Counted from the first letter of the stretch, positions 1 to 18,508 are shown. The stretch: DNA of 64,000 nucleotides from Oligoflexia bacterium (GCA_011087955.1 JAALKR010000006.1:15661-79660); one strand, 5' to 3'. Made by a program: numbers and translations. Notes: generated from the letters alone by a model not told the origin.

Positions 1-3000
1 CCTTTCAATTCCGGTCGTATCCTCATCAGCTTCTAACTTCAAGATAGCATCATGGAATTCGAAAATTCGATTGAATTCATTATCCACTGCTGACTGAACA
101 TCATCTAATAGTATTTGACGAATTTTTGAAGCAATCGGCATCATTAGTAATTTCTCATCTTGAAATTCATACACAAACGAGCGCGCTCGCATCAGTGGCA
201 TATATGGCGGTGCTTGATAACCTTCAAAAGATGTAGACCAAGGCAGTTGGAATGAAATATTCCAACCTATATTTTCCATATTCAAAACATAGTTATGATA
301 ATCAAAGAAGCCCATTAAGCCTCGATCTTTAGGATGGTATAGATATTTAGCCACAGACCCGTACATTACAGTCTCGCCCTCACCACTGAATCGATCAATC
401 ACTGTATAGTTAGTTTCCTGTCCGCGGTCTGACATGCCCAAAAGATTTAGTGCTGCACGATCAGCATCAGATACAGTCAAGAGCTCATAAGCTCTGAATG
501 TATCGCGAATAATTAAGTCTATCTCCATTTCGGTTGTAACTACTTTTGATTCACAGCTCAAGTCATACTCTTCAAATTGACACTCTGGAGCTGTCTCGTC
601 ATAAATTTCCAATTTTCCAACCTTATAAACATTAAGGTACATATCCAACTGCTCTTTAATAAAGAACTGCCCCCACCAAGTATGACCTTTATTCCAAAAA
701 ACTAAGAATTTTGATTGGTTGCTTAAATCAAACCCTCGATAATATCGCATTGCTTTCTTAGCAAACTCCTCTTCATTTCGAGCATCTTGAAATTTAATTC
801 GCTGTGGATGATCGATATAATCTTGAAGCTTAATCATTCCCGCAACTGGCATGATTAAGCGAATACCATTATTAACTGGGCCGGTATCAAATGTATCTGA
901 TTTATATCCTTTCGCCAGAAATTCACTAAAACGAATTAATGAATCTAACATGTGTACTACGAACTCTCCACTCTCCCAGTCAAAATAATCTGTGCCGTTA
1001 TAGCCTGGCAAGTCCGGGTGAGTAACTTTATAGCGAGTTGTAATATTTTTAATTTTTGCATAACCTGCTTCCTCGGACAGATCACTTTCGGCCACCTTGC
1101 CCTGAATTATTTTTATCTGGCCATAGTCACGATACATCTGTTTATAAAACTCGTACATTACCCAATAGAGCGCATTCTGTATATCAAGTTCTCGGCGAAT
1201 AAGTAGGGTCCCACAATCTTTAAATAGACTGCGAATTTCCATCATTATTTTTGAAAAGAAACGACGCTTAAAATGATTAGCACGTGCAATCTGATTTGTA
1301 ATTGGACTTAAAATCCTATCAATTTTTCTCTCATCTTCTAGCAACTGGAGATCATCGACCAAGTAACGTTTATAAATTTCCATTATGTTTTTCAGAATTT
1401 TAATTTTACTTTGCAAAGATAAACGCACAAGATTAATTGCATTCTGGTGCGTAGTCGAGTTGTAGCGAAAATAAAGCCGCAACGGTGAATTTGACTGTAC
1501 ATTTTGATTGTGTGTAGAAAAATCATAAAAAATTTGACCAAAACTAGAGTAAAGCAGCGTCGCTAATCGGAAGTCTTTTGGTGTAGTCGTTACAGAATAA
1601 TTTCGGTGCCTGCGTTTCTTAAAAATCTGCTGCGGCGTTAATTCCCACTCCGAAAAACGGCGCTCTTCTGCACAAACATTTAGGAGCTCCTCGTATTGAG
1701 TTTTATACACACGAGCTGGCATCGTGAAAAGCGTCAAACGATCCCGAGCCGCTTCTAAATCGGCATCCATCAATTGTTTTGAAATTAAGCTAAAGAACTC
1801 TGTAGGCTCCACTTTAAAGAACTTAAAGGCTTCCATACGGAGAGCAAAATGCATTCCTAAAGTTAAACTAGTCTGGTTTAACCACTGGTAATACATTCCG
1901 TCTGCTCGATAATCGAACCAAGAAGCTGTACCTTTCATAAAAATATGATTAAAAATTTTTTTCCCAGAAATAGAACCAAACCAGTTCTGAGTCTCGAATT
2001 TGTCTTTGAGCATTTTATAGGCGAGCATAAGCATATGCGGCGTAGATACGTATAACTTCACTGTCTGATTTATGTTCTCTACATCAATCTTCAGTTCTTT
2101 AAGGAGATTAATGTTTTCATCCAGTGCATACATAGAAAAATCGCGCACCCGAGCAATGCGATCATAGTAGTCTTTCCAATAGCTCCGAATTTCATTTGCT
2201 ACATCTAAGGCCCTACGGTGCATATCATTCTGCATATATGCTCGGCCTTTTTTTGTGCTACTGTCGTAGAAATCACCCATTCTCTGGTGAGACCGAACAA
2301 CTACACTTAAGAACTGAACTTGCACATAGTCTTTAATCACCCTTACTAATTGATCTTTATCCTGCTTAGATCCTCCCCAAATTGATCGAACTGAATCCAC
2401 GTCCCATACCCGCATATAAAGACTATTGATGATATAATAAACTGAATCTTTTTCTAATTTCTTCTTTAGCCCGTGAACCCTCAGTGCATGTTTAGTGTTT
2501 TTATTTACGTTATCATAGGCTGCGGTATACGAGCTTGGGTTGGAGGCAAGGTTCTCTTCAATTACCGATTGAAACCAAGGCTCTTCAATTATACCTCGTT
2601 CACCTAGTTCTTTCAGCGCTACCTTTTGCACTCGGGATCGTTTTGTAGCCGCTCGAGCAACGGATTGCTCCACTAAGTAACGAATATAAGATCGATAGTC
2701 TTCCGTCGTACCAAGCATATCCGGAATTCTAACTAAACGCTCCATTTGTCGATAGTGAAACTCTTCCTCTTCTTCATCAAAGTGTAGTAGATTTCCTCGA
2801 CTGATTTTCCGCCTTCTATTAAATTTTTTCTCAATTTCTGGTGCCAGGGCTAGCAGCATTCGCTCGAAGCGAATACTACGTTGCCCTTTCGCAATACCTA
2901 TACCAGTGTAGATTCGCTGCTTCTTGAGTTCGAGGTCATTCGTCTCTAATTGAGCCACACGCGCCCAAACATCAATAGAGCTAGACGTATCACGGAAAAT

Positions 3001-3471
3001 TTCAATTAAAGCACAACCTTTCATATAAGCTTCACAGCCATGTCGCACTAAAGACTCGTAATCAAGGAGTAGAGACATACAACGGCTGCCCTTGGGCTCA
3101 ATTTCACAAAGATCAAGTAGAGCATTATTATAGAGACGAATGATCTCCATAAGCTGCGCTCCTCGATTCATCTGTAACGTCAAGGTATTTAGATTAAAGC
3201 TCGCCACTTGTAGCGGCTTGATTCTCTGCTTGTAAATCTCCTCTGCTGACTGAATGCTATTATTACCTTCAGCTAACACCTGAAATCTCTCTATCGTAGC
3301 ATCTGGAACAATTTTCGGACTCAACACGAAAGAAGATGGAGCTGGTTCGACTGTGCGTTCACCTGTCTTGTGTACAGAGCTAGGGATAGACTTGCCAGTA
3401 CACGCAGAAAGACCGAAACTCATAACGAGTATTAGAGTAATTATAATCTGTCTTCGTACGGCACTCAGCAT
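1..3471 (-). CDS. Giant lipoprotein, function unknown. N-terminus is at 3471 and the C-terminus runs off the window start. Paralogue of 4420..8433
   Basis: Absent from the supplied ORF track (no stop inside the window). The minus-strand frame is open for all 1,157 codons from ATG 3471..3469 (spot-checked about 15 sequence lines for in-frame stops; none found). N-terminus MLSAVRRQIIITLILVMSFGLSAC is a signal peptide plus canonical lipobox (LSAC). Collinear similarity to the 4420..8433 product. Confidence 0.75.
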   Translation of the reverse strand, partial: MLSAVRRQIIITLILVMSFGLSACTGKSIPSSVHKTGERTVEPAPSSFVLSPKIVPDATIERFQVLAEGNNSIQSAEEIYKQRIKPLQVASFNLNTLTLQMNRGAQLMEIIRLYNNALLDLCEIEPKGSRCMSLLLDYESLVRHGCEAYMKGCALIEIFRDTSSSIDVWARVAQLETNDLELKKQRIYTGIGIAKGQRSIRFERMLLALAPEIEKKFNRRRKISRGNLLHFDEEEEEFHYRQMERLVRIPDMLGTTEDYRSYIRYLVEQSVARAATKRSRVQKVALKELGERGIIEEPWFQSVIEENLASNPSSYTAAYDNVNKNTKHALRVHGLKKKLEKDSVYYIINSLYMRVWDVDSVRSIWGGSKQDKDQLVRVIKDYVQVQFLSVVVRSHQRMGDFYDSSTKKGRAYMQNDMHRRALDVANEIRSYWKDYYDRIARVRDFSMYALDENINLLKELKIDVENINQTVKLYVSTPHMLMLAYKMLKDKFETQNWFGSISGKKIFNHIFMKGTASWFDYRADGMYYQWLNQTSLTLGMHFALRMEAFKFFKVEPTEFFSLISKQLMDADLEAARDRLTLFTMPARVYKTQYEELLNVCAEERRFSEWELTPQQIFKKRRHRNYSVTTTPKDFRLATLLYSSFGQIFYDFSTHNQNVQSNSPLRLYFRYNSTTHQNAINLVRLSLQSKIKILKNIMEIYKRYLVDDLQLLEDERKIDRILSPITNQIARANHFKRRFFSKIMMEIRSLFKDCGTLLIRRELDIQNALYWVMYEFYKQMYRDYGQIKIIQGKVAESDLSEEAGYAKIKNITTRYKVTHPDLPGYNGTDYFDWESGEFVVHMLDSLIRFSEFLAKGYKSDTFDTGPVNNGIRLIMPVAGMIKLQDYIDHPQRIKFQDARNEEEFAKKAMRYYRGFDLSNQSKFLVFWNKGHTWWGQFFIKEQLDMYLNVYKVGKLEIYDETAPECQFEEYDLSCESKVVTTEMEIDLIIRDTFRAYELLTVSDADRAALNLLGMSDRGQETNYTVIDRFSGEGETVMYGSVAKYLYHPKDRGLMGFFDYHNYVLNMENIGWNISFQLPWSTSFEGYQAPPYMPLMRARSFVYEFQDEKLLMMPIASKIRQILLDDVQSAVDNEFNRIFEFHDAILKLEADEDTTGIER

Positions 3472-3514
3472 TTTCACTACACTCCAGTTACCAGACCACA
3501 GGAACAATTAATAA

Positions 3515-4402
3515 CTAAAAACTATACGCAAGAGTTGCTTTCACAAGACGGCGGTACTTGTCGACATACCAAAGTTCGACCGTACCATCATCCGTATAGC
3601 CACCATTGCTATGAGAAACAGACATACTTAGGCTGCCCAAAGAATAGCTAAGGCTCTGCGAATTACTATAAGAGAAAGAATGAAATCCATCGCTATAACG
3701 CGTACGACGAATACCAAAGCCTAAACCAGCAGAAAGCTCACCAACAATTGGAATGGAAGAATCAACAGTCCAACCATAAGCTCCATTCGCCGTTGGCTCA
3801 TTAGAAACAGGTGAAAAATCAAATTTATTGAAAATAAATTGATAGTACACCCGGTTAGAGATCGAGAATAATCTATCGAAAAATTTCGAGTTAAGCTTTG
3901 GAGCAAGTTCCACGGAACCATGAGCACCTTCAATGCGATCCTCTTCCATCATTGGTAAAGAACCACTGGCGCCAGCTGATATGCTATGTTCAGCTCCTAC
4001 GAATTTCCCCAATTTTCTGGAAAAATTCCGCGATATACCCAAGCTTATGTGTGAAATTCCTGAATCTTCTTCATAACCTGAAATCGATGAACTTAGAGTT
4101 TTAAAAAAATAGCCTGTAGAGAAAGACATCGAAAAATAATCTCTAAATTTATATGAGGCATCAACAGCAACCTTATGTTGATAAAGCCGAGGTTCAAGCT
4201 TTTCAGCAAAATCTGTGCTAATCGAGTAACCAACGCTAGCACCAAACGGTGCTTTAGCTTCTTTATCCTCCTTTCGAGCTTCTATTTTACCCTCAGCAGA
4301 CTGTTCAGCTTTCACTGGCTTTGCTTCCGTCTCTGCAGAGTATGCGTTCCCAGAAACAACGGCCAGAGTGGCGATTATTGCTAATACTGTAACGTTCTTC
4401 AT
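3515..4402 (-). CDS. Outer-membrane beta-barrel protein, unknown family
   Basis: 295 aa. Signal peptide MKNVTVLAIIATLAVVSGNAYS, then a Lys/Glu-rich linker, then S/G/Y-rich alternating strands. C-terminus ...ATLAYSF ends in Phe as in BAM substrates. It lies 17 nt after the upstream gene and 43 nt before the downstream gene. Confidence 0.7.
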   Translation of the reverse strand: MKNVTVLAIIATLAVVSGNAYSAETEAKPVKAEQSAEGKIEARKEDKEAKAPFGASVGYSISTDFAEKLEPRLYQHKVAVDASYKFRDYFSMSFSTGYFFKTLSSSISGYEEDSGISHISLGISRNFSRKLGKFVGAEHSISAGASGSLPMMEEDRIEGAHGSVELAPKLNSKFFDRLFSISNRVYYQFIFNKFDFSPVSNEPTANGAYGWTVDSSIPIVGELSAGLGFGIRRTRYSDGFHSFSYSNSQSLSYSLGSLSMSVSHSNGGYTDDGTVELWYVDKYRRLVKATLAYSF

Positions 4403-4419
4403 AATATCTACTCCGCCAT

Positions 4420-7400
4420 TTATTCCACTTGCCCGAGAATCTTCTTACAGTCGCCTGCCGTAACCGAAATCTGTGCAAATTCTGTATAATCCTTACCAGC
4501 TACAAAGCCTTCATCGCCTTCTTTCGGCAGGAATACACCTTTAGTATCTTGAATAAAGGAACTACGCTTAGCTAACCAATTATCAATATCTTTAGAATCT
4601 AAATAGACCGTAGGCGAAGTCATAGATTCCTTAGGGTACATATAGAGTCGATTCACGCGACCGCGATCATCCACTTCAAGCTTATACAAAACCTTAAGAT
4701 CATCTACACTTAGGCTTTGGTCTGCTAATTCATAGCATTTTACCGTTTCTTCAAACTCCCTAACTGCGCGCTCCGCTACTAATACAGATGGTCGGTACAC
4801 TTCTCGCGTATTACTCCGAACCGTATCGTGCTTCGCTAAGAACAATAGTTCTCTGGCTTCTTGGTTCTTCCAGTCCACAATCGTTAGGTCTTGCGTATCT
4901 TCTGAGTTTCTATCCTTAAACATGGAATTAAAGGTGGAAGCCGCTTTTGCCGCCTGATGATAAAGATTTAACGCCTTGCCTGTCGAGTACGTCTTATAAA
5001 ATTGTTCAAACAGAGAGCGCGGTACGTTCTGCTCGTCTAAAAACAAGGCATTGACCTGAGACTCAATAATCTTAGTCGATTTACCAAGGCGCATTAGCAA
5101 GCCTTCATCTTCTGGCGTAATATCCAGAAAATCTACAATATAGAAAATTTCGTCTGTAATCTGATGCATTTTGATCGGATCGTGATCTTTCCATTCAGTA
5201 CACGAAAACCTTCCAGCCTCTCTAACAGAAGCTCGATTGCAATTTTCTTTCGCATTCTCCACAATGCCGAGTTGTTCCACCTGGTACAAATCCTGCTTCA
5301 GCTCACGGCGATAGTGGTAGAATAGTGCTGTACGACGATCCCACCAGCCGACAAACTCAAAATTTTCTGCTGCAGTCATCGCCTTACGAATAAACTCTTC
5401 CTTCGAACGGTCCGCACCAGACCCCAAAGATACTTTGACTCGGAATTTCTCATCCTTCGCTTTCTCATAGAAAGCGCTTATTTCAAATGCAGACGGCAAT
5501 GATACTTTAATTCTTCGGTTTACTACCTGTTGTAAGTTATTGCGCGCTCGAAGCACATAGTTAAACCTAGAATAGATGAACGATCCAGACTCATTGAATT
5601 CATCAAACCCAGGGACATCGCCAACCTCTGCTTTATACACTTTTGATTGTTCGGAGAGCTGGGTTAAGATTGGTAGATTTAACTTAGCACGGTCCTCTGT
5701 GCCATACTGTCCGTTCAATGCAATATTGAAAATTTCTAGCACATCCCCTTTCCTTAAACCCATGGCTGCAATTCGTTCTTTGTCCTCCATGATCTCTACA
5801 AGCTGATTGAGAGCATCATACACATTGCCTAGGAACTCGCTTTCCAAATCATAGAGTGACCGCTGTTGTTCGAATTCAATCTTATGAATGATATCAATGC
5901 AATCGTCTGCTTCTGCAGAGCGGTTACGCGCCAACTGATACGAACGACGAACTGAATCGTAGTACACATCAAAATTTGATTTCACTTGGTCTAACTTCTT
6001 CTGTATTGTTTCGTAATCTTCAATACGTTTCAAAGCACCACTTGGTAATGTTGAATGCGATTTGAGTTTTTGGTTCATGGCCCAGTGATCTTCTAAAATT
6101 TCGATCATAGTACGTACGAAAAGCACCTTGGGATAGAATTCATTATGAATTTCGCTCAAGGTCTCTTCCAGGTCACCCGTATAAACCTCACCGATCATTC
6201 CACCGAAGTCATGGGAGTTTAATCCCATATAGGTTCGCTTCATAAATGCATCTAACGTTAAATCAATCTGATAATCGGCAGTTTCTCTAGCTCTCACGAA
6301 AGCTCGGCCGTTCTCTGCTTTTTCGTGAGCAGCTAGTTCCTTATGACAAACCGAAATTGAGTCGTTATATTTCGGAGAATCATTGAACTTACGCTCTATA
6401 GCCTTCAGATTCTCAGAAATTGTGACTACATCACTAGAAATATAGCGCTTAATCACTTGATTGAAAAAACCTACTACATTTAGTTCAAACTTATTAACAT
6501 CGACCTTAGAAAAATTTTCAAATGTATTCGTTTTCAATGCATAGAAGAATGCATACAAATTCTCAAAGCGCTTAATTCGTCGACTGTCATTACCAAAATT
6601 GAACCACGGACGAGCTGGCTCTCCTGTTGTACCTCCGAATAACCAGTTAATAATTGTTTTTGCTATGAGCTTAAATTTATAGCCCCAGAAAGTTGTAATC
6701 TCTACCTCGAACTCTCGTGCAGCTAGGTAATAAGCTAAAAGCAGCATATTCGGGTAAACCGAGACAAGCTTGATATTCGTCTTAATCGAAGTGAAAATTC
6801 GATCTAGGCGCTCAAATTCTACGCTTTGCTCCCCATCCTCATTGCCCAGGCTCTGCATATTCGTCTTCACAAATCCACGAATCTCTTCAAAAGATCGAAT
6901 CATACGATCCCAGTCCGACTTCAATAAGCGAGATTCTTCGATGGCTTGCAAAAACAATCGGTCACGCTCGATGGAAGTATTGCTTCCATCATCGGACTCG
7001 AAAATACCACGAATAAATTCATTAGTAGCAATTGTGCGGCGAAGGAATTCTACTTTGATATAGCGTTCAATCAGAAGCATCATTGCCTTATTGCGAGCCT
7101 CAATCGCTGCTCGAGACTTGCCTTCTAAAGAAGCCTCCCAACACTCTTGCATGATTCCTCTGTTCCAGTGGCCGCGATAGAGTTGATCAAGGTAAAAGAG
7201 TTCTTCAGTTGCTTCAAAGGGCTCGAGCAATCGCATATTAGCCAGCGTTAAGCCAGCCTTTTCGCTTGCACGTAGGTCATTAACTGTTTTTACAAAACCA
7301 TCTCGACCCCAAGCATCTTTTTCGTTGAGACTACTTTGAACTGCTTTATCAAAACCAGATTCTTCATCCCGAAAGAATCGACAAGATATTTTCATCACTT

Positions 7401-8433
7401 CAATAGCAGTACGAATGGAACCCATACTCATCCGCTGTTCGATTGGATTCCGCAAGGTAAATCGAGTCCAAACAGTTTTCTCATCGAAGTATGGCTTAAT
7501 CTTGGTGCGATAGTTTTCGTTGTCCAAGCGATCATGAAGCTCACGAGTCACTCGTTCCGCGTTTCGCTCATGCTGCTCGCGGTCTGACGTACTCCAAAAT
7601 CGATTTGGCAGCTCAATGAGTTCATTCGTACTGACTAAATACAGCAAAGAGAGTGTGGAGTCTTCATGGCGACTACCTGTACGCATTCCTAAAGCAAAAT
7701 GAATCACATTCTTTTTCTTTACAATCACTTCATGTAATCGGTCATGGGCATGCTTCATTTCTTCTGGAATCTCTGAAGAAGAATTTGAATTGATTTTTAG
7801 ATTACTTTTTTGAAGCGCCAATACAGTCTCATGCAAGCTCCAGCCGTAAGCTTCTAGGAGACGAGTTGTGCGTGCTCCATCAGATTTACCTAACTTTTTC
7901 GCATACTCACAACCTTGAAGATTGTTAGCACAACGAGCAGCTAAAGAGTCCCAATAGCGTGAAAGGACCAGTTTCTGTTTCACAAATTCAGGGTTTAATT
8001 TTTGCATGAGATCAATTGCTTTGTTAATTTCACGGAATTTCCGTTTAAAATCAGGCTCTGTACTATAGAGTGGGTCGTACATATAATTCGAATTGAGAAC
8101 AATCTCTTTCAACGGAGTATAAACTTCATCGAATATTTGCTGGACTAAGGAAGAGTCTTTACCAAATAGATCTTTGGATTCCGCTTCCGCTTTTAACAAG
8201 CGATTCTTCCTTCTCATTTCGCTTAAACCAGAACGAATGCTATCCAGGCCAGCTGCTGTGGCAGTACTGTACGAAAATTGTGGTTCCACTTCTTCAAAAA
8301 TTTTGGGGGCGCCGCTTTGGTGCTTTGTAGATATCTTATGATCACTACTACAAGCAGTTAGTGTAAAGACCAGTGCTACATTCAGAATTTTAAAATATTT
8401 GACATATTTAAAATATTTTATCACGTCATCCAT
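4420..8433 (-). CDS. Giant lipoprotein (1,337 aa), function unknown; paralogue of 1..3471
   Basis: Long uninterrupted ORF. N-terminus ...ILNVALVFTLTAC is a signal peptide plus lipobox (LTAC). Charged, apparently helix-rich sequence with scattered Cys. No catalytic or repeat motif that I recognise. It starts 12 nt after the stop of the metalloprotease gene. Confidence 0.75.
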   Translation of the reverse strand: MDDVIKYFKYVKYFKILNVALVFTLTACSSDHKISTKHQSGAPKIFEEVEPQFSYSTATAAGLDSIRSGLSEMRRKNRLLKAEAESKDLFGKDSSLVQQIFDEVYTPLKEIVLNSNYMYDPLYSTEPDFKRKFREINKAIDLMQKLNPEFVKQKLVLSRYWDSLAARCANNLQGCEYAKKLGKSDGARTTRLLEAYGWSLHETVLALQKSNLKINSNSSSEIPEEMKHAHDRLHEVIVKKKNVIHFALGMRTGSRHEDSTLSLLYLVSTNELIELPNRFWSTSDREQHERNAERVTRELHDRLDNENYRTKIKPYFDEKTVWTRFTLRNPIEQRMSMGSIRTAIEVMKISCRFFRDEESGFDKAVQSSLNEKDAWGRDGFVKTVNDLRASEKAGLTLANMRLLEPFEATEELFYLDQLYRGHWNRGIMQECWEASLEGKSRAAIEARNKAMMLLIERYIKVEFLRRTIATNEFIRGIFESDDGSNTSIERDRLFLQAIEESRLLKSDWDRMIRSFEEIRGFVKTNMQSLGNEDGEQSVEFERLDRIFTSIKTNIKLVSVYPNMLLLAYYLAAREFEVEITTFWGYKFKLIAKTIINWLFGGTTGEPARPWFNFGNDSRRIKRFENLYAFFYALKTNTFENFSKVDVNKFELNVVGFFNQVIKRYISSDVVTISENLKAIERKFNDSPKYNDSISVCHKELAAHEKAENGRAFVRARETADYQIDLTLDAFMKRTYMGLNSHDFGGMIGEVYTGDLEETLSEIHNEFYPKVLFVRTMIEILEDHWAMNQKLKSHSTLPSGALKRIEDYETIQKKLDQVKSNFDVYYDSVRRSYQLARNRSAEADDCIDIIHKIEFEQQRSLYDLESEFLGNVYDALNQLVEIMEDKERIAAMGLRKGDVLEIFNIALNGQYGTEDRAKLNLPILTQLSEQSKVYKAEVGDVPGFDEFNESGSFIYSRFNYVLRARNNLQQVVNRRIKVSLPSAFEISAFYEKAKDEKFRVKVSLGSGADRSKEEFIRKAMTAAENFEFVGWWDRRTALFYHYRRELKQDLYQVEQLGIVENAKENCNRASVREAGRFSCTEWKDHDPIKMHQITDEIFYIVDFLDITPEDEGLLMRLGKSTKIIESQVNALFLDEQNVPRSLFEQFYKTYSTGKALNLYHQAAKAASTFNSMFKDRNSEDTQDLTIVDWKNQEARELLFLAKHDTVRSNTREVYRPSVLVAERAVREFEETVKCYELADQSLSVDDLKVLYKLEVDDRGRVNRLYMYPKESMTSPTVYLDSKDIDNWLAKRSSFIQDTKGVFLPKEGDEGFVAGKDYTEFAQISVTAGDCKKILGQVE

Positions 8434-8445
8434 CCAATCTACGGA

Positions 8446-11400
8446 TTAATGCACCATGTACCTAAAGACCATTGGCAAAAATATATTGTTCAGGGCTAAC
8501 GCCTGACTCACAACCAAACCAACGTCATCTAGCGCTTTTGTACAAACAGTTCCATTCTCGGAGTACCCCGGCTCCTCGAGGTACTTATCAAATTGCTTAC
8601 GAACAGAGTCTGTAAATTCTCGATAGCGAGTATCATTTCCGGCGATACCGTATGGAATATAGAAGCCACCAAATTTTTTGTTACTAGTGGAGAAATAAGA
8701 GCTCAAACCAGCCTTCTCTCGACAAGTTGTGCCAATATCTTCGTAGGTAGTGAATAGGTTGTGCTTAATCCCTTCTACCCAAAGAGCTGAATAATCCGAT
8801 TTGTTATATTGAACTCGAATACCCCAGGCGAGAGCAATATTGTCTGAGAGGAAAATCAAGTTTGAAATTGGATATACGAAAGTTTCTGCGGTTGTGCCAA
8901 AGAATACCTTACCTTCTGGAAGCATGTAAGCATTACCAAGCTCTTTAATTTCTTGACCCCATTCATAGATGAAAGCAATGAAATTAGAAATTTTTTCCGG
9001 ATCCTTACCACCGCCATTTGGCCGTTTAATGCGAACGAACACAGGAACAAACGGGTATCTAGCATTAAAGATAAATTGCGATTGCTGTTTGATATTCTCC
9101 ATATAGTCGCCATCGAACTCATGGAAATCGTTTGTCGATTGGAATGGGTAACCAAAAGTCTGCATTAAAAAGCTTCCCATGAACAAGGCAATTCGCCCCA
9201 TTTTGGGCTCATTGCCCGTATCCTTATTCAACTTGATATTGGAAAGAACTGAGGAAGTAATATTTTTAGTAAACTCTTCTGGATATAAAGAAGCATACAC
9301 ATACTTATTGTTCATACCACTCTTTGAATACTTATAGTTCGGGATAACATAATGTCCGTATGTAAAGAATGATTGCGCTGTAGTTAATGCAAAGAGCGCA
9401 GACATCTTGATCGGCAAGACACCAACTTCCTTCCATGTGCCCCATACACGAGACCAATCCTCAAAACCAGAGCCCCATTCGTTCGTAGGAACAGACCAAT
9501 CGGAATCATCAAATACAGAGAAATCGTTACCAGGATCTGTAATGAAACTACCTAACTCCTTCACTATTTCTCGGTTTAGATTACAGAGTTCCTCGAACTC
9601 TGGATCAGCACTCTGGATGACTGTACGAACAATATTTTTGTCCTGGTCTTTATTAGCGCATTTTGAGAAAGAAAGTAGATTCTTTGGATCATTTTCTGCA
9701 ATTTTCAAAATTTCATCGCGATACTCTCTACGCATATAATCGTAGAAAATACGTACACGAGAAAAAGTGCGAAGCGACCCACGCCATAAATAGTAACGAA
9801 CTAGCCACAGGTTATTGCGAACTTTAGCAAAGTTATTTAACTTACTCAGCCAGTTATTTTTATAGTCGTCAAAATAGCTCTTCACGATGGATGTTGCATC
9901 CCAACCCATATCCCAGCGGTTGCAATATGGATCCAATGCCAGCATGGCCATCATATCGGTACAGCTTGGAAAATAAGAAACCTTATACCCTTTAAGACTT
10001 GGGCTATATCTTCCAAGGTCTTCATCCTTGCCAGGAATACGGCCATCTCGACCTACGGGAATCTCATCGACCAAACGAACATATTCAAAGTCCACATCTT
10101 TGCCGTTATAAATTGGAATTTGGTTATTATAGATGAAGCGTAATACAAGCTTATCCTGTTCTCCAATTTTCACCTCTTCCGGACGACGAGCCATTACTTG
10201 ATAGGCATGTGGGTAGCCCATTATTGTCGTGAAGTTCAGATTTACTGTATTCTGCTTCTTTCGATCTTTTTCCAAAGCATCCCAGTGTGCATCCGGAATA
10301 GATCCCTTTATGGGCATAATATTATCTTTGAAGTTATGGCCAAGGCCCAGCATATGGCCAAACTCATGAAGCATTGTCTTCTTCAGGCTGGTCTTAACCA
10401 AATCTTCCACATCGATATCGTCTTGTAGTTCTGCTGGCGCTGCCGCTGCTTGCATTGCAAAACGGCCGATGGTGTGGTCTAAATCAACAACGCCAGTATT
10501 ATGCATACGTTTAAGGTTCTGCTCTACCTTTTGATTACGATGAGCCGTTTGTAAACCTGGAGCCATGTCTCCGTAATCTCGCCCCAGCATCACTGAGCGC
10601 ATTAGCTGATCTTCACGATAAGCATGGGCACCAAGCATCCAAGAATGCCACTTTTCCCCATCAAGCATTGAGCTAGAATCAGTGCTCATTGCATTTACTT
10701 CAGCAATACAGACCCCTATAGCTTTACCGTAGAGGAGGGATTCATCTTTCAGTAGAAACCTATTACCAGGCATCATGGTGTCACCACGAACTTCAGCGAT
10801 CATTGTCGCTAGTTTCTTGCCTAGAAACTCCCATGAATGAGCTGTTGGATTTGTGCTACCATTGGCATAAAATTTCTTTGCCATTTCTGCAAATCGACCA
10901 TCTCTAATCATGGCGTCAATGCCTTGCTCATCCAAGCCCTCAAATTGTTGTAGATCCTGAATAAATCCGTCATAACCTTTGTGTGCAATCAAATGCTTAC
11001 CGCGGTAGAGACTCTTAATCGTGTCTTCCACATTAAATACATTTGCAGAACCTTCTCGAAATGGCATACTCGTGATGTCTACTGGTGAAACCATGTGGCC
11101 AAATGGATTGCCACCAAGGATTGGACGATTGTATTCTTCACTATAGCCCGCCTCGCTTGGCATGTGCATAAACGCATCACCAGTACCGAAATTTGAACCA
11201 CGGTAGTGTTCAACCCACTCCTCTAAAGCACCGCCATAGTTGGTAGAACCAGCCCAAAGAATCTTTCCTGTTTTTACGTCCATTTGTGCTTGCGCAATCC
11301 CTAGTGGAGATCGAGCTGAAATGCGCTTATCAGACACATAAGAAATTGAGCTACAGCGAAGGTCAAAAAGATGATTCATCTCTTGCGAACTTACGACGAA

Positions 11401-12480
11401 AGCCTTCTTTCCTCGTGGAACGACCTCAGCCTCTACCAAAGCCTCATTCCATTGCTCTAAAGTCTCAATGGCAATTTCTCGAGCTTCCAGGCTTCCTGCA
11501 AAGCCGTTCAAGCAAATTTCATGAGGAATTACGGATTCACGAAAATCCCAACGCGCTAGATACTTGATTTGGTGAATGCCATTCAACTTCGAACCTAATC
11601 CCCAAAGTGTTCCAAAATGATTCGAATTGTCTTGGTGAGACAAGCGCTTTTCGAAAGTAGTGTCAGAATCAAACTCTAAGAAATTAAATCTAAACTGTGC
11701 TTGGTGATGGGCTCCAAAATAAGAGGAAGAGACAGATGATGTAAACGCAATATAGCTCTTGCCTTTGTATAGAGTACGTTCAAAATCATTTACAGATACG
11801 GTGAGAGTACCACCATAGAGTAATCTATAGGCCCAGTCATGAACGGATAGTTCGCGCCAATTTACAGACATGGAAGTTCGCGCTTCCCAAGAGTGGCGAT
11901 CCGTACGGTGAACCCACTCATTTTTTGGGCGATTATACTTGTCTGTACTCCGTACAAAATCAAAATGAGAATTGATCGGAACCGTAATAAGTGTCGGCCA
12001 GTCTTTGCGTGGAACGCCCGGAGTAACCTGCTTACCAACAAGCTCTGTTTCTTCAATGTCGAATTGAATATTACAAGCTGGCAGCAGATGTGCGCCATGC
12101 ACCTGAGTCCATTCAGAAATGTAACCAACTTCTGAAATCGGTGCCCAACCACAAACAAATGTTTTTGGAACTAGTACGTTGCGAGTAATAATCTTCCAGG
12201 CACCAGCTGCTCGGCCTTGGCCTGAGAGTGTAAATAGGCCTCCGCTTTGCGCGTGATAGAGTTTTTTGAATTCTGGTTTATGTTCCGCTTCGGCAACAGA
12301 GACTTCAAAACCGGTCTGTTTGTTTTGCAAGAAGGAACGGGACTCCATTTTTTGGAAAAACGCTTTGTCCGTTGCTTGGTCTGTTGGGGATGGAAACTTC
12401 TCTGGAGGTGTCGTATAGGAACAGGCAGCTTGGAAAATAAGCGCCAGAATCGGCAACATGATAGGTGACAAATATTTCAT
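8446..12480 (-). CDS. Large zinc metalloprotease (metzincin-type HEXXHXXGXXH; resembles the DUF4953-type 'zinc-dependent metalloprotease' family); probable lipoprotein
   Basis: HEFGHMLGLGHNF is encoded at 10330..10368 (minus). Track start 12498 is TTG. I prefer ATG 12480, which has GAGG about 11 nt upstream, giving MKYLSPIMLPILALIFQAAC (signal peptide, lipobox-like AAC). An AT-rich promoter-like region lies upstream (12499..12730). Confidence 0.8.
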   Translation of the reverse strand: MKYLSPIMLPILALIFQAACSYTTPPEKFPSPTDQATDKAFFQKMESRSFLQNKQTGFEVSVAEAEHKPEFKKLYHAQSGGLFTLSGQGRAAGAWKIITRNVLVPKTFVCGWAPISEVGYISEWTQVHGAHLLPACNIQFDIEETELVGKQVTPGVPRKDWPTLITVPINSHFDFVRSTDKYNRPKNEWVHRTDRHSWEARTSMSVNWRELSVHDWAYRLLYGGTLTVSVNDFERTLYKGKSYIAFTSSVSSSYFGAHHQAQFRFNFLEFDSDTTFEKRLSHQDNSNHFGTLWGLGSKLNGIHQIKYLARWDFRESVIPHEICLNGFAGSLEAREIAIETLEQWNEALVEAEVVPRGKKAFVVSSQEMNHLFDLRCSSISYVSDKRISARSPLGIAQAQMDVKTGKILWAGSTNYGGALEEWVEHYRGSNFGTGDAFMHMPSEAGYSEEYNRPILGGNPFGHMVSPVDITSMPFREGSANVFNVEDTIKSLYRGKHLIAHKGYDGFIQDLQQFEGLDEQGIDAMIRDGRFAEMAKKFYANGSTNPTAHSWEFLGKKLATMIAEVRGDTMMPGNRFLLKDESLLYGKAIGVCIAEVNAMSTDSSSMLDGEKWHSWMLGAHAYREDQLMRSVMLGRDYGDMAPGLQTAHRNQKVEQNLKRMHNTGVVDLDHTIGRFAMQAAAAPAELQDDIDVEDLVKTSLKKTMLHEFGHMLGLGHNFKDNIMPIKGSIPDAHWDALEKDRKKQNTVNLNFTTIMGYPHAYQVMARRPEEVKIGEQDKLVLRFIYNNQIPIYNGKDVDFEYVRLVDEIPVGRDGRIPGKDEDLGRYSPSLKGYKVSYFPSCTDMMAMLALDPYCNRWDMGWDATSIVKSYFDDYKNNWLSKLNNFAKVRNNLWLVRYYLWRGSLRTFSRVRIFYDYMRREYRDEILKIAENDPKNLLSFSKCANKDQDKNIVRTVIQSADPEFEELCNLNREIVKELGSFITDPGNDFSVFDDSDWSVPTNEWGSGFEDWSRVWGTWKEVGVLPIKMSALFALTTAQSFFTYGHYVIPNYKYSKSGMNNKYVYASLYPEEFTKNITSSVLSNIKLNKDTGNEPKMGRIALFMGSFLMQTFGYPFQSTNDFHEFDGDYMENIKQQSQFIFNARYPFVPVFVRIKRPNGGGKDPEKISNFIAFIYEWGQEIKELGNAYMLPEGKVFFGTTAETFVYPISNLIFLSDNIALAWGIRVQYNKSDYSALWVEGIKHNLFTTYEDIGTTCREKAGLSSYFSTSNKKFGGFYIPYGIAGNDTRYREFTDSVRKQFDKYLEEPGYSENGTVCTKALDDVGLVVSQALALNNIFLPMVFRYMVH

Positions 12481-12823
12481 ACGCACAAGCCTCAACAACT
12501 AAATCAACTTCAACACCCACGCACACCCTTCTACCGTTTTAATCCTCCGGATTGTACCAAAAATGACGCGTAGAATCAATACGGAGTTTAACTATAAAAA
12601 TGTATATTTTACGCTCTATTAAGTAGCTGAAATAATTGATTAAACTGCTTATTTATCTAAAGAAATTACGACTTTCAGTCAAATAATTACAAAATTTCTA
12701 CATACATATAGGAAGACAACAATATAATATTTGCTTACTCTTCACCCTCATTTGACCTCTTGGCAACCGCCTATTAACGCCACGGCGATGATTTGTCACC
12801 CTAGAAGTGGTAGAAAGAGGACT

Positions 12824-13951
12824 ATGAACTTTCGCAATGTCGGGTTTCTCGGTGGTGGTCAATTAGCCTATATGGCGGCTCCTTATGCGGAGAAGCTTGG
12901 TATCAACCTATACTCTCTCGACAAGGCGGGGGCTCCAGCTGAATCTATTCTCAAACACTTCGTACCCGGCTCGATTCAAAGCTTTGATGATATTGTCCAG
13001 TTTGGAAAGACTTTGGATCTCATTTCGATCGAAGTGGAAAGTATTAACGTAGATGCCCTGGCCGAACTTGAAAAATCCGGAGTTCCGGTACGGCCGAGTT
13101 CAGAAGTTATTCGCTTAATTCAAGATAAGGGCACGCAGAAGCAGTTCTTTGCAGATAATTCGATTCCTACTAGCCCATTCCGTCTGATTCATTCAAAGAA
13201 AGATCTACCCAAGCATGTCGATTTTTTGCCTGCCTTCCAGAAACTGCGCAAAGGCGGATACGATGGAAAGGGTGTGCAGTCGATCCACTCGGAAAGTGAC
13301 TTTCATAAAGCCTTCACTGCTCCATCTGTGTTAGAAAAAACAGTTTCAATAGATAAAGAAATTGCCATCATCGTTGTAAGAAATAGCCAAGGTGATATTG
13401 TCGTTTACCCACCTGTAGAAATGATTTTCGATGAGAAGCTAAATTTAATTGATTTCTTATTTTGTCCGGCCGACATAACTAATGTACAAGCGGAGAGAGC
13501 GATAGAGATTAGTAAATCCGTTGCCGAGAAGCTCTGTGTTATTGGACTTCTTGCGGTTGAATTGTTTATCGACGAGAGTGGAGAGATTTTAGTAAATGAA
13601 TTAGCTCCACGGACTCATAACAGTGGACACCACACTATAGAGTCGGCCAGCATTTCACAGTTTGAAATGCACTTACGTGCTATCGCTGAGCTTCCTTTGA
13701 GTCCACCGAAAATCGAACGCCCAGCGCTGATGATGAATCTGTTAGGGACCGACGGCCATACGGGGACAGCCTATTTAGAAGGCAAAGAAAAAGCCGACTC
13801 AATAGATAACGTGTATCTCCATTGGTACGGGAAGAAAGAAACAAAGCCTGGCCGTAAAATGGGACATGTTACAATTACAGACAGGTCCAGAGAAGAGGCA
13901 ATCGCCTTAGCCAAGAATATTCGTTCATGGTTAAGAGTCATTTCCAAATAA
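12824..13951 (+). CDS. purK: N5-carboxyaminoimidazole ribonucleotide synthase (ATP-grasp)
   Basis: Motifs VGFLGGGQLAYM and NELAPRTHNSGHHT; followed by purE. Track start 12731 is TTG. ATG 12824 is preceded by AAGAGG and matches the usual PurK N-terminus. Confidence 0.9.
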   Translation: MNFRNVGFLGGGQLAYMAAPYAEKLGINLYSLDKAGAPAESILKHFVPGSIQSFDDIVQFGKTLDLISIEVESINVDALAELEKSGVPVRPSSEVIRLIQDKGTQKQFFADNSIPTSPFRLIHSKKDLPKHVDFLPAFQKLRKGGYDGKGVQSIHSESDFHKAFTAPSVLEKTVSIDKEIAIIVVRNSQGDIVVYPPVEMIFDEKLNLIDFLFCPADITNVQAERAIEISKSVAEKLCVIGLLAVELFIDESGEILVNELAPRTHNSGHHTIESASISQFEMHLRAIAELPLSPPKIERPALMMNLLGTDGHTGTAYLEGKEKADSIDNVYLHWYGKKETKPGRKMGHVTITDRSREEAIALAKNIRSWLRVISK

Positions 13952-13983
13952 AGATCTGCTGTGGGCCAAAATAGGAATTTGCT

Positions 13984-14484
13984 ATGGATGACGAGAGTCC
14001 GGCTTTAGTAAGTGTTGTAATGGGAAGCAAAAGCGACTTGCCAGTTATGCAGGACGCAGAAGATATCTTAAAGAAGTTTTCAATTCCCTATGAAATACAA
14101 ATCGTCTCTGCCCACCGCACTCCACAAGGGATGATCAAGTTTGCAGAAAAATGCCAAAATCGTGGAATTAAAGTGATTATAGCAGCCGCCGGGGGTGCTG
14201 CCCATCTTCCGGGAATGATCGCTAGTGTTACGATTTGCCCAGTCATTGGTGTTCCAATTCACTCGCAAAACTCAATTCAAGGCTGGGACTCTGTTCTTTC
14301 GATACTACAAATGCCTCGGGGCGTGCCAGTGGCAACTGTGGCTCTCAATGGAGCCACAAATGCCGGCGTATTAGCCGCACAAATATTAGCCTGCGATTCT
14401 GATTCAGTACGTACCAAGCTAGAAGAGTACAAGAAAGAACTACAAGAGCACGTAGCCAAGCAAAATGCCAATTTCAAAAAATAA
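13984..14484 (+). CDS. purE: N5-CAIR mutase
   Basis: VVMGSKSDLPVM, VSAHRTP and AGGAAHLPGM signatures; 166 aa; adjacent to purK. Confidence 0.92.
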   Translation: MDDESPALVSVVMGSKSDLPVMQDAEDILKKFSIPYEIQIVSAHRTPQGMIKFAEKCQNRGIKVIIAAAGGAAHLPGMIASVTICPVIGVPIHSQNSIQGWDSVLSILQMPRGVPVATVALNGATNAGVLAAQILACDSDSVRTKLEEYKKELQEHVAKQNANFKK

Positions 14485-15631
14485 CTCTACTGGACTCATT
14501 CTTTCTGGCGGCGGCGCTCGAGGAGCCTACCAAGCTGGTGTCCTTCGAGGCATTTCGGAAATATTTGCAGAGCAACCTCCAAAGCTGGATATCATTACTG
14601 GGGTTAGTGCGGGTGCGATCAATGCTGCTTATCTTGCGGCGGAAATTGATACGTTTCAAAAATGTACAAAGAATTTATGGGACTTTTGGTCGGAGCTTAA
14701 ACCAGACGATATATTTCACACAAACTTCAGACACCTGACAGGCAACATGTTTCGACTTGTGAAAAACTTTACCGTTGGGGCTTGGCGAGATGATTTGAAC
14801 GAACGTAACCTAGGGCTCCTAAGTCCGCTCCCACTGAACGAACTTTTGCGTGCACGAATCGACTTTTCTGGCATATCGAGAAACATTGAATCAGGCATGC
14901 TCGACGTACTAGCCATCTCGGCCTTTGACTATGAAAGCCGCTTAGGAATCACCTATTATCAAGGTGCAAATGATAAGAACAGTTGGCGAAGGTCGCATCG
15001 CCTATCAAAACCTGAGATAATTACTGCTGACCATATAATGGCATCTGCCTCAATTCCGCTTTTTTTTCCTGCCCATAAAATTGAAAATCGTCATTTGGGG
15101 GACGGTTGCTTGCGCAATACTGCACCATTGTCTCCAGCCATTCGCCTTGGCGCTAATAAGCTACTTATCATTGGCGTGCGACAATCCCTGAAGGACAATA
15201 TTGATTTATCTGGAAGCACTAACACCCCCTCCTGGGGTCAAATCCTAAGCACAGTTATTTCTGCAATTTTCTTCGATGGACTAGAAATGGACTTAGAGCG
15301 ACTCGATCGAATTAATCAAAATATAGCTGGCGATTCTCTGAGAATATCTGAGCCTACAGAGAATGAAAATAACGGTGCACATCCACTTAAAAAAGTAGAA
15401 TTACTGTATATTCATCCGTCTAAGAATCTAGCCGATTTAGCTACAAAGCACTTTGATACTCTGCCAAGATCGTTGAAGTTACTCTTTCGCACGCTTGGAG
15501 CATCAAAAGATAGTGGTGATTTAATTTCCTATTTTCTGTTTCAAAAGGAGTATTGCCAGGAGCTTCTGGAGCTAGGCAAAGCTGATGCTATCAAAAGAGC
15601 CTCTGACCTGAAAGCTACCTTCTCTCCTTAG
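14465..15631 (+). CDS. Patatin-like phospholipase
   Basis: GGGARGAYQAG oxyanion motif, GVSAGA nucleophile elbow (GXSXG) and a DG(C) Asp motif (LGDGCLRN). 20-nt overlap with the purE end. Confidence 0.85.
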   Translation: MPISKNNSTGLILSGGGARGAYQAGVLRGISEIFAEQPPKLDIITGVSAGAINAAYLAAEIDTFQKCTKNLWDFWSELKPDDIFHTNFRHLTGNMFRLVKNFTVGAWRDDLNERNLGLLSPLPLNELLRARIDFSGISRNIESGMLDVLAISAFDYESRLGITYYQGANDKNSWRRSHRLSKPEIITADHIMASASIPLFFPAHKIENRHLGDGCLRNTAPLSPAIRLGANKLLIIGVRQSLKDNIDLSGSTNTPSWGQILSTVISAIFFDGLEMDLERLDRINQNIAGDSLRISEPTENENNGAHPLKKVELLYIHPSKNLADLATKHFDTLPRSLKLLFRTLGASKDSGDLISYFLFQKEYCQELLELGKADAIKRASDLKATFSP

Positions 15632-15698
15632 GCAGGTATCCATAAATAGCTTTGCGATCCTTGCACAAAATGCTAAATCAGGTAGCAGAGGAAAAACC

Positions 15699-16769
15699 GT
15701 GTCGGATTGCTGCCCACCAGTCGAAGACCATTGCGCACTACAAAATCGCCGGACTGACTATCTTTTTTGGTCTTGTGGCCTAGCGATCTTTTTCGGCTAC
15801 ATGCTTGTCCTTACAACAGACTATTTTTCCATAGGCCTGGGAGTTAAATGGCTACATGAATTTTCTACCTCTATATACAAATTATTCAACACAATGTGGT
15901 TTGGGATCCTGCTAGGAATTATATTTGTTGGCCTACTGACAAAAGTACCACGCGAATATGTTGAATCTAGTCTAAACGGAAAGACTCGACTTCGCGGCCT
16001 CTTACGGGCAACATTTGCTGGTCTGCTACTAGATCTCTGCAGTCATGGAATCTTGCTTGTTGGCATGAAATTATATGGACGAGGCGCCAGCCTAGGACAA
16101 ACAATGGCCTTTCTGATTGCTAGCCCATGGAACTCTTTATCACTGACGGTGATTCTGATTAGCATGATTGGTTGGACTTGGACTCTGGTCTTCATCGCTT
16201 TGTCCGGATTAATTGCACTAGCATCAGGCTACATTTTTGAGTTGTTAGTTGAGCGAAAGGTATTGCCAGAAAATCCTAACCGAGGTCATTCGCAGTTAGC
16301 TGACTTTAAATTTTGGCAAAAAGCCCGAGAAGATATTCGCCAAGTTCGCTTTGATCTAGAATTTCTCCAGTCTATTTTTGTACGCGGTGTTCAAGATTCA
16401 AAAATGATCCTTCGCTGGCTACTGTTTGGGATTGTACTCGCAGCACTAATTCGAACGTTTGTTCCAATTGACATCTTTCAAAACTATTTTGGTGCAACAG
16501 CAGCTGGGTTAGCCCTTACCCTATTGGCTGCTACGGTAATTGAAGTCTGTTCTGAAGGCTCTGCTCCGCTGGGAGCCGATATTTTGACTCGTGCAAATGC
16601 TCCTGGAAATTCTTTTGCCTTTCTGATGACAGGTGTATCTACGGACTACACTGAAATCCTAGCCTTAAAAGAAACTACAAAGTCTTGGAAAATAGCCTTC
16701 ATGCTACCACTCATTACGGTTCCGCAAATTATTCTACTGTCATGGATATTGAATCGATTCGCACAATGA
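15699..16769 (+). CDS. Predicted permease (UPF0718/ArsP-like family) with Cys-rich N-terminus
   Basis: About 8-10 hydrophobic segments. Conserved-looking VCSEGSAPL segment. N-terminus MSDCCPPVEDHC. GTG start preceded by AGAGGA. Confidence 0.6.
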   Translation: MSDCCPPVEDHCALQNRRTDYLFWSCGLAIFFGYMLVLTTDYFSIGLGVKWLHEFSTSIYKLFNTMWFGILLGIIFVGLLTKVPREYVESSLNGKTRLRGLLRATFAGLLLDLCSHGILLVGMKLYGRGASLGQTMAFLIASPWNSLSLTVILISMIGWTWTLVFIALSGLIALASGYIFELLVERKVLPENPNRGHSQLADFKFWQKAREDIRQVRFDLEFLQSIFVRGVQDSKMILRWLLFGIVLAALIRTFVPIDIFQNYFGATAAGLALTLLAATVIEVCSEGSAPLGADILTRANAPGNSFAFLMTGVSTDYTEILALKETTKSWKIAFMLPLITVPQIILLSWILNRFAQ

Positions 16770-17081
16770 AGTGAAATTAAATGAAAGAATAAGTGTGTTA
16801 CCTTCTCTCCTAGAGCGACAAATAAAACACCTTGAACCTCACTAAAATCTTTTAATTTCAGTTATTTGCACCAAATCATGCATGCATTCCCATCGATGGA
16901 GCACGAAAAACACATAAGAAAATAGCAAAATATTTCATTGCCTTATGCCAGAAAAGAGCCTACTTATATCCGATGAAAACTTGGGTTTACTGCATAAATC
17001 AGTTCTCCAGAACTGAGACAGGTGGTACCTTACTGGAGTCGCAAATAGGCGACCGTAACTTTATTGAGAAACCTTATAATA

Positions 17082-17411
17082 ATGAAGAAACTATACGTTG
17101 GAAATTTGCCTTACTCAGTTGACGAAGGTCAGTTGAATGAAATCTTCTCTGAGGAAGGGAGCATACTTTCGGCGAAGCTGATCGTCGATCGTGACTCTGG
17201 GCGCTCGAAGGGCTTTGGCTTTGTCGAGTTTGAAAGTGTTGAGGATGCGGAGCGTGCTATCGAGAACCTAAATGGTTCTGAGGTAAGCGGACGTACCATT
17301 ACTGTTAACATCGCTAAAGAGAAAACTGGCGGCGGCGGCGGCGGTGGACGTCGCGGTGGACGTGATTTCCGTGGCGGCGGCGGCGGTCGCGGCGGCTATC
17401 GCAGAGACTAA
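17082..17411 (+). CDS. RRM-type RNA-binding protein with Arg/Gly-rich tail
   Basis: RNP-2 LYVGNL and RNP-1 KGFGFVEF motifs. C-terminal GGGGGGRRGGRDFRGGGGGRGGY is encoded by GGC repeats. ATG 17082 is preferred over track TTG 17064. Confidence 0.9.
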   Translation: MKKLYVGNLPYSVDEGQLNEIFSEEGSILSAKLIVDRDSGRSKGFGFVEFESVEDAERAIENLNGSEVSGRTITVNIAKEKTGGGGGGGRRGGRDFRGGGGGRGGYRRD

Positions 17412-17796
17412 TTCATCTCGCATAATTTAATTTTCTAGCAGGGCGTTGTGAACTCAGTGTTTTTTTCGGCTTGTTAAGGAAGTTCAAATTGCTCCTCACA
17501 ACTATATAAAGCACCTCAAGGATCCCACTCAGTGCAGCTGCTTGCGTCGGCTTCAGCCTCTGCTTATGAGTGGTGCGGCCTTCGCTTTGGCACCGCAGTC
17601 CTTATGCTCGACTCCCTGGGCGCCGAGAGTGACTGAAAAAATTTTGATTGGTTCGCAGGATACCTTTTATGTCGGCACGCTCAAGGGCGTGGCTCGGATG
17701 TATCAGAAAACCTTTGTGGACACTATTCGAAAGTAGTATTCTGCAAGCTCTACAACATGAAAACAGCAATCACTGCAGCAATATGGAGGACTTGGC

Positions 17797-18204: not shown

Positions 18205-18357
18205 GTAGACTCCGCGCCAAACTAACGCATGGAGTGTAAATATGGAAAACAAAGAAATTGGCCCGGCAGAATATCGACAGCATGTAAGTTAGCACGCTTA
18301 CGAATAATCGAATGCCCCTGGTGTTTTTTTTAATGTTTTTCGTATTTTAAGTGCGTG

Positions 18358-18376
18358 GCTGCAATGCAGCTTTTTT
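18358..18376 (+). terminator. Weak candidate intrinsic terminator after the VOC gene
   Basis: GCTGCA-A-TGCAGC palindrome followed by TTTTTT. The stem is short, so this is a low-confidence call. Confidence 0.3.
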
Positions 18377-18410
18377 GATTTGTGTTTTGACTCTAGATTT
18401 TGAAGAAAAT

Positions 18411-18487
<77 letters not shown>

Positions 18488-18508
18488 GTTATAACGAAAT
18501 TAGGACAA

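Follow-up and report, generated by a model that had tools for sequence, protein, structure and literature searches.

The described systems that come closest to the locus reported here are the adaptor-protease pairs NlpI-Prc and LbcA-CtpA, in which a helical outer-membrane lipoprotein acts with an extracytoplasmic protease, and the barrel systems Slam and RcsF-OMP (OMP, outer-membrane protein). Adaptors of the NlpI and LbcA type are small tetratricopeptide-repeat (TPR) proteins (about 30-60 kDa), and their partners are serine proteases of family S41. Slam has an N-terminal TPR domain followed by a C-terminal 14-stranded DUF560 barrel, belongs to type 11 secretion and is encoded by genes that adjoin those of its substrates (PMC7857515), while the RcsF-OMP assemblies are interlocked lipoprotein/barrel complexes (PMC4942254). 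The locus that we compare with them lies in a 64,000-nucleotide (nt) stretch of DNA, hereafter the window, from an Oligoflexia bacterium (GCA_011087955.1 JAALKR010000006.1:15661-79660), where four consecutive minus-strand genes, named g1-g2-g3-g4, form a cassette for a metzincin-like lipoprotein (g1), two very large lipoproteins (g2 and g4) and a small predicted beta-barrel (g3). As to its general kind the cassette is an envelope lipoprotein-protease module, and its composition is without a described counterpart; besides the zinc site of g1, none of the four products matches a described family or a solved structure.

As in Slam and RcsF-OMP, a barrel gene adjoins lipoprotein genes in the cassette, and an N-terminal tether of the lipoproteins may be recognised or threaded by the barrel. 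It may be noted, though, that the cargo would here be several times larger than the TbpB-type substrates of Slam, and that the K..R..HE tether motif found in g2 and g4 (see below) is not a described signal of either system. The arrangement of NlpI-Prc and LbcA-CtpA may plausibly serve as a functional parallel to that of g2 and g4 with g1. Yet g2 and g4 are of about 140-150 kDa, form a paralogous pair and show neither a TPR signature nor a fold match, and the protease of the cassette, g1, is itself a lipoprotein of the metzincin type.

A four-gene unit conserved in the Bdellovibrionales

All four genes are on the minus strand of the window: g1 at 8446-12480 (1344 aa, counted from an ATG at 12480), g2 at 4420-8433 (1337 aa), g3 at 3515-4402 (295 aa, the predicted outer-membrane beta-barrel) and g4 at <1-3471, of which the first 1157 of 1208 aa fall within the window. 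A lipoprotein signal starts the products of g1, g2 and g4, and ribosome-binding sites of the GGAG type precede g3 and g4. The gaps of 12, 17 and 43 nt in the list of open reading frames (ORFs) of the window are those given earlier by a sequence-only reading of the same DNA. That reading had placed the start of g1 at 12498, and the longest ORF (8446-12498, 1350 aa) does begin there with a TTG; the ATG at 12480 is the more likely start because a GAGG lies 10 nt upstream of it and because public gene calls use it. The suggestion that the operon might extend beyond the window was right for g4 itself, which ends 156 nt past window position 1 as seen in a contig of the same organism (L004, 14215-17841, full length 1208 aa), and wrong for further conserved genes, as the conserved unit consists of four genes and ends at g4.

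A collection of 5.8 billion proteins gave 16 full-length homologs of g1, all of them unnamed or hypothetical. In the contigs of four of these homologs (28-42% identity to g1) all four genes recur in unchanged order and with similar sizes, the g1/g2/g3/g4 products being of 1344/1334/300/1188, 1195/1134/277/1082, 1207/1140/282/1094 and 1314/1302/308/1208 aa, within entirely different flanks. A scan with a g2 profile over 185,579 species, each represented by one genome, gave 19 loci, all in metagenome-assembled genomes (MAGs), which bear the names Bdellovibrionales, Bdellovibrionaceae, Pseudobdellovibrionaceae, Bdellovibrionota and 'Proteobacteria bacterium SG_bin7'. The order g1-g2-g3-g4 was present in 12 of the 12 genome loci long enough to judge (two with assembly frameshifts) and in five further metagenome loci, which goes well beyond what chance would give. 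Altogether there are at least 14 other complete cassettes, in Bdellovibrionales MAGs or metagenomes, with protein identities of 20-45%, unrelated flanks and short gaps or overlaps between the genes. Since the four genes have diverged to 20-45% identity and have unrelated flanks, selection acts on the block. Conservation of the four-gene order had been named beforehand as a check on the sequence-only reading, and the order is indeed conserved across the Bdellovibrionales. The cassette is therefore described here as a chromosomal, vertically conserved and rare module of one order. This lineage, the boundary of the operon at g4, the paralogy of g2 and g4 and the tether motif are new with respect to the earlier reading.

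Two still more distant loci extend this picture. One (L030) has the full cassette and adjoins an ATP synthase operon. The other (L031), the farthest removed of all loci examined, keeps g1 and g2 next to a strongly diverged g4 (1227 aa; hhalign E=4e-21), at 13761-18165, with a gene for a 217-aa secreted protein after g4 and a 249-aa OMP_b-brl gene upstream on the other strand. In a different locus (L020) an additional g1-like ORF (1351 aa), only remotely similar to g1 (E=1.7e-9 with the g1 hidden Markov model, HMM), lies divergently upstream of the cassette at 3-4055 on the minus strand, and may be part of another, paralogous module that the locus end truncates. An origin from a mobile element was considered and rejected, as no relatives were found in viral contigs by a contig scan or in plasmids by tblastn.

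The four products and their conserved elements

The signal peptides of g1, g2 and g4 end in lipoboxes (...ALIFQAAC, ...VFTLTAC and ...SFGLSAC, respectively), for which the lipidated residue is predicted to be Cys20 in g1, Cys28 in g2 and Cys24 in g4. All three products thus have the signal peptide and the lipobox with Cys by which a bacterial lipoprotein is recognised, and their lipidation is predicted on these grounds. These lipoboxes (FQAAC, LTAC and LSAC) had been pointed out in the sequence-only reading, and they recur in the orthologs: no complete locus lacks the lipobox Cys in g1, g2 or g4, and 116 of the 124 full-length representatives of the g2/g4 family have it. Asp is present at position +2 in none of the three lipoproteins of the window, so sorting of g1, g2 and g4 to the outer membrane is predicted by the rule established for E. 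coli, which may not hold in this phylum.

Directly after the lipidated Cys, the g2- and g4-type proteins carry a conserved tether of the form C-[TSNP]-x-[KR]-x3-[RK]-x2-H-E-[GA], or in short C-x2-K-x3-R-x2-H-E-G. In the window this is seen as Cys28 and the tether CSSDHKISTKHQSGAP of g2 (8305-8352, minus strand) and as Cys24 and the tether CTGKSIPSSVHKTGER of g4 (3355-3402, minus strand), the His being at +10 in both. Of the 116 full-length family representatives that bear a lipobox, 60 have the tether His exactly at +10, and in 90 it falls within +7 to +12, compared with a background His frequency of 1.4%. We know of no described lipoprotein signal of the form C-x2-K-x3-R-x2-H-E-G. The tether that follows the Cys of g1 is of another, Pro-rich kind (CSYxTPxxxTPxP) and is likewise conserved. 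Linkers after the lipidated Cys of lipoproteins are normally unconserved, so a conserved motif at this place points to a specific docking or sorting step, and we infer that the tethers of g1, g2 and g4 may be docking or sorting elements.

A relationship between the two giant proteins had gone unnoticed. Sequence comparison makes g2 and g4 ancient paralogs that belong to one new family: BLASTP finds 19% identity between them over 882 aa (E=4e-11), and hhalign, comparing profiles built from five orthologs of each, gives E=4.7e-72 over 1018 columns. A HMMER search with residues 90-1289 of g2 against 1.84 billion representative proteins gave 199 proteins at E<=1e-3, 126 of them at <=1e-10, and among the 150 matches listed the lengths are about 1000-1400 aa, fragments aside. 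The HMMs of the cassette label 92 of the listed representatives as g2-type and 29 as g4-type, with 30 ambiguous. The protein clusters of this family have one to four members each, all environmental. Searches for a known family were negative throughout. Pfam and NCBIfam gave no family for g2 and g4, apart from one chance-level lipoprotein-signal match on g2, and Pfam gave nothing consistent for 39 distant members. PDB sequence profiles gave no match for g2 or for the 61-sequence g2/g4 family. In the word-index protein search both g2 alone and a concatenated g2+g3 alignment of five loci returned the query only, and an exact look-up of g2 found no record.

For the structure of g2, the AlphaFold2 model of residues 90-1289, built on the 61-sequence family alignment, has a mean predicted local distance difference test score (pLDDT) of 89.8 and a predicted template-modelling score (pTM) of 0.80, and is almost wholly alpha-helical with a few short hairpins. 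Foldseek against the PDB matched this model only with eukaryotic helical-repeat proteins, at template-modelling (TM) scores of 0.08-0.14 and root-mean-square deviations above 30 A, and against a viral library only with generic helical proteins, none of them a real match. The top PDB matches are alpha-solenoids (karyopherins, Nup192, CAND1 and cohesin SA2), which are likewise large proteins of stacked helices, whereas g2 is predicted to be a secreted and lipidated bacterial protein with disulfides; judged from the model, there is no real fold correspondence. The claim that the giant lipoproteins belong to no recognisable family, for which profile and fold searches had been named beforehand as the check, therefore stands, as neither Pfam, NCBIfam, PADLOC and PDB profiles nor fold comparison assigned them to any studied family.

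Within the family the cysteines C168/C175 and C696/C845 (g2 numbering) are invariant and probably form two disulfides. Together with the eight invariant non-lipid cysteines of g1 (16 homologs), these four residues of g2 fit an oxidising, extracytoplasmic location. Other conserved motifs of g2 are ExxFxxDxLxRGH (410-422), NIKxxSVYPNM (553-563) and PWFxFGND (609-616). The first of them, a polar motif, is kept by the g2-type members and lost in g4; therefore g2 and g4 look like a pair with one 'active' and one degenerate partner.

In its layout g1 has a conserved tether rich in Pro, an N-terminal part rich in beta structure, an insert that varies in sequence and is of low model confidence, a zinc site and a mixed C-terminal part. 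The zinc-binding motif H705-E-F-G-H709-M-L-G712-L-G-H715 (HEFGHMLGLGHNF, 10336-10368, minus strand) has the HExxHxxGxxH signature of the metzincins that had been noticed before, and H705, E706, H709, G712 and H715 are invariant in the 16 homologs. A putative Met-turn, M754-G-Y756 (TTIMGYPH), is found at 10213-10221 on the minus strand; M754 and Y756 are invariant in the same homologs, and M754 lies 39 residues after H715, a spacing from the third His which we take to fit the metzincin topology. The motif HExGHxLGLxHN(F/N) with a downstream conserved Met is shared with the EcxA/DUF4953 metzincins (PF16313, 4l63), the reprolysins and M10. From the EcxA/DUF4953 proteins g1 differs by its length of 1344 aa, its lipoprotein nature and its large flanking domains, for which no counterpart is known, and it is not a subunit of an AB5 toxin; it also differs from metzincins in a catalytic core that is apparently split by an insert of 170-260 aa.

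The profile matches of g1 are limited to the region of the zinc site. DUF4953 (Pfam PF16313) scores 21.8 bits, the cut-off being 24.2, over profile positions 6-32 of 316, and g1 is thus not a member of PF16313 at the gathering threshold. All 16 homologs match DUF4953 weakly, with a best E of 2.7e-6, and three of them have it in precomputed annotations. The Pfam matches to M10, M43 and reprolysin are weaker than that to DUF4953 and below threshold. Among PDB profiles g1 matches EcxA (4l63) and leucurolysin (4q1l) at E of about 0.01-0.02, and the zinc-motif stretch alone aligns. A search of the literature on DUF4953, and on metzincin together with Bdellovibrio, found nothing relevant.

As a stand-in for the structure of g1 we used the AlphaFold2 model (pLDDT 71.6) of an ortholog, P0014, of 1195 aa, from the SG_bin7 cassette. 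The model begins with a beta-rich N-terminal region. A helix (281-299) and, after it, four strands (312-368) come next, then a variable insert of low confidence and about 170 residues, and the active-site helix (567-586) before a mixed C-terminal region. This order of secondary structure is compatible with a metzincin core that an insert interrupts; beyond the zinc motif, a metzincin fold of g1 (a five-stranded sheet with helices A, B and C) is putative. The corresponding part of g1 itself is a poorly conserved segment at residues ~430-690 (window ~10411-11190), which separates the strands of the putative core from its active-site helix. Clades differ by about 150 aa in the length of this segment, and it could be a regulatory or latency insert.

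The product of g3 has a cleavable signal peptide that lacks a lipobox and, in its N-terminal part, a charged stretch of about 30 aa; some 12-14 beta segments of amphipathic character and the C-terminus ...LAYSF follow. These sequence hallmarks are those of an outer-membrane beta-barrel and substrate of the barrel assembly machinery (BAM), which g3 is accordingly predicted to be. The signal peptide, beta pattern and C-terminal Phe reported by the sequence-only reading are all present and recur in the orthologs, the terminal Phe in 13 of 15. Neither Pfam nor PDB sequence searches matched a family for the g3 of the window and its 15 orthologs taken together; single orthologs gave isolated weak matches to generic barrel models (OMP_b-brl, 0.18; AcfA family, 8e-4; TorF, 0.01). 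A metagenome scan with a five-sequence g3 alignment found three loci only.

Other known systems were tried as explanations and rejected. Slam was dismissed because g3 lacks the TPR domain and the DUF560 barrel, its mature length of about 270 aa leaving no room for a TPR domain. A Sus-like or TonB-dependent locus was discarded as no receptor or SusD match to Pfam/NCBIfam was found in the four proteins. For a Tc toxin or RHS protein there was no Pfam match, and Foldseek against the PDB with the models of the g1 ortholog and g2 gave no Tc/RHS structure. The absence of such domains and folds agrees with the earlier statement that the locus is not Sus-like, Tc-toxin or RHS. A known anti-phage defence system was also rejected, PADLOC having given no match for the four proteins. 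Components of Myxococcus-type gliding (Glt) were considered and set aside because no TPR or Glt-type domain was detected.

Possible role of the cassette

The reading that we prefer, and to which we give a probability of about 0.4, is that the cassette products make up a protease complex that is self-contained, anchored in the outer membrane and specific to the Bdellovibrionales, with a surface role against prey or environmental proteins. Bdellovibrio is a predatory bacterium, and the group is studied as a source of prey-killing enzymes; a surface-directed role against such proteins is favoured because the lineage is predatory. In this complex g2 and g4 would pair as a pseudo-symmetric helical scaffold or adaptor that could hold, gate or feed substrates to g1. 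The barrel g3 would be the membrane-embedded partner on which the conserved N-terminal tethers dock, and might either thread the tethers as porins thread RcsF or assist in bringing the lipoproteins to the cell surface. Extracytoplasmic proteins would then be cleaved by the complex, most likely those of the prey envelope or of the environment, at the surface of the predator. We infer the co-expression and physical coupling of the cassette products, their function and orientation, and the role of the barrel.

Several observations weigh against this reading. All members of the cassette-protein families come from uncultured organisms. The scan for promoters and terminators gave site counts equal to those of shuffled sequence and is uninformative. 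Foldseek against the PDB with the P0014 model returned no metzincin and nothing at E<0.1 (best 0.11). As regards the barrel, no TPR or DUF560 was found in g3 and its 15 orthologs at E up to 5, nor any link to a lipoprotein-handling barrel; a barrel of 12-14 strands is small for the export of disulfide-bonded proteins of 130-150 kDa, which weakens the version with surface display; and L031 has no barrel gene between g2 and g4, whereby the barrel may be dispensable.

The alternative that survives best, which we hold possible though doubtful, is a periplasm-facing role in envelope maintenance. Here the lipoproteins would sit on the inner leaflet of the outer membrane, and g2 and g4 would be giant helical adaptors through which g1 receives the cell's own envelope proteins and degrades them in a regulated way, like NlpI-Prc and LbcA-CtpA, with g3 only a scaffold as MipA is for MltA. 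An inward orientation is the default for proteobacterial outer-membrane lipoproteins, helical lipoprotein adaptors of periplasmic proteases are an established design, and proteins so large and disulfide-bonded would be hard to export via a small barrel. The placing of the cassette among housekeeping genes (the pur genes and the ATP synthase operon) is also in keeping with it. Yet no TPR, S41 or M48 signatures were found, and known adaptor-protease pairs need neither a tether motif nor a dedicated barrel. A general housekeeping function should moreover be widespread, but the cassette is confined to one order, with only 19 loci among the 185,579 species.

A second alternative reverses the roles and seems to us unlikely. 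In it g2 and g4 would be the payload (for instance as a surface coat, as an adhesin or as two effectors aimed at prey), g1 a protease for their maturation or release and g3 their translocon, in an export route that is Slam-like but unrelated to Slam. The K..R..HE tether common to g2 and g4 could on this account be an export or cleavage signal, and the barrel gene lies between the two paralogs at nearly all loci, much as Slam genes adjoin those of their substrates (PMC7857515); the restriction of the family to a predatory lineage fits as well. Against it stand the lack of the Slam domains in g3, the cassette of L031 with its missing barrel, and the strong internal conservation of g2, including the polar residues E410, D416 and H422, which is more like that of a working protein than of a coat.

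More improbable still is the boldest form, a new outer-membrane machine in which g3 and the tether would constitute a route unrelated to Slam by which lipoproteins of very large size are displayed on the cell surface, a g2/g4 heterodimer with a new fold would present or gate g1 against the prey envelope, and the His-Glu of the tether might possibly reach the zinc site of g1 as a latency switch. The view that the four genes are mere neighbours of unrelated function, or miscalled ORFs, can draw on the uninformative promoter and terminator scan, but is effectively refuted by the synteny, all four being conserved at 20-45% identity in the same order at at least 14 independent loci with different flanks; the confident AlphaFold2 models of g2 and the g1 ortholog also speak against it.

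If the four products do form one complex, it would be a lineage-specific envelope machine with three of its four parts in no described family. These three parts would amount to about 3,900 confidently structured residues, and the barrel would bring the figure to 4,180. It would combine a new metzincin architecture with a new giant helical lipoprotein fold and maybe a new tether signal, and would bear on how large outer-membrane lipoproteins are placed and oriented in Gram-negative bacteria. An ordinary periplasmic housekeeping protease with its adaptors would be of narrower interest, and would still bring two new protein families.

Upstream region and neighbouring genes

The AT-rich region upstream of g1, mentioned in the sequence-only reading, is a divergent intergenic region between g1 and purK at 12481-12823 (343 nt, GC content 0.36) if the purK start of the gene caller is used, and 12499-12730 (232 nt, GC 0.30) if taken between the longest ORFs. 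Both values are below the 0.45 of window positions 12824-64000, and the spacer is common to g1 and the divergent purK-purE genes. The cassette as a whole (window 1-12480) has a GC content of 0.41, which drops along the operon from 0.43 in g1 through 0.41 in g2 and 0.41 in g3 to 0.40 in g4. A candidate promoter, TTGATT-17 nt-(TG)TACAAT, is present on the minus strand at ~12551-12579 (5107-5135 in L004). Rfam gave no family in the cassette or its upstream region.

Just past window position 1, the L004 contig has a gene for a 217-aa DTW-domain protein of the tRNA-modification type at 17841-18494, on the minus strand in window orientation. A convergent gene follows it. Its start overlaps the stop of g4 by one base, so that it may be co-transcribed with the cassette in this organism; it is not downstream of the cassette at any other locus examined. 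On the other side, the cassette of the window adjoins purK-purE (12731-14484). In L031 (1-23741) the cassette is located among genes of purine biosynthesis: purM and purN lie on its upstream side, and purB, purC, purS, purQ, purL and purF on its downstream side. This common pur neighbourhood may be a coincidence or a remnant of an old synteny. Further along the window, the ORFs at 26570-28555 (661 aa) and 18739-19401 (220 aa), both on the minus strand, have no Pfam match at E<=1e-3. Two RNA genes were also identified on the minus strand, one for tRNA-Asp(GTC) at 18411-18487 and one for 6S RNA at 20861-21044 (Rfam RF00013, 58.4 bits).

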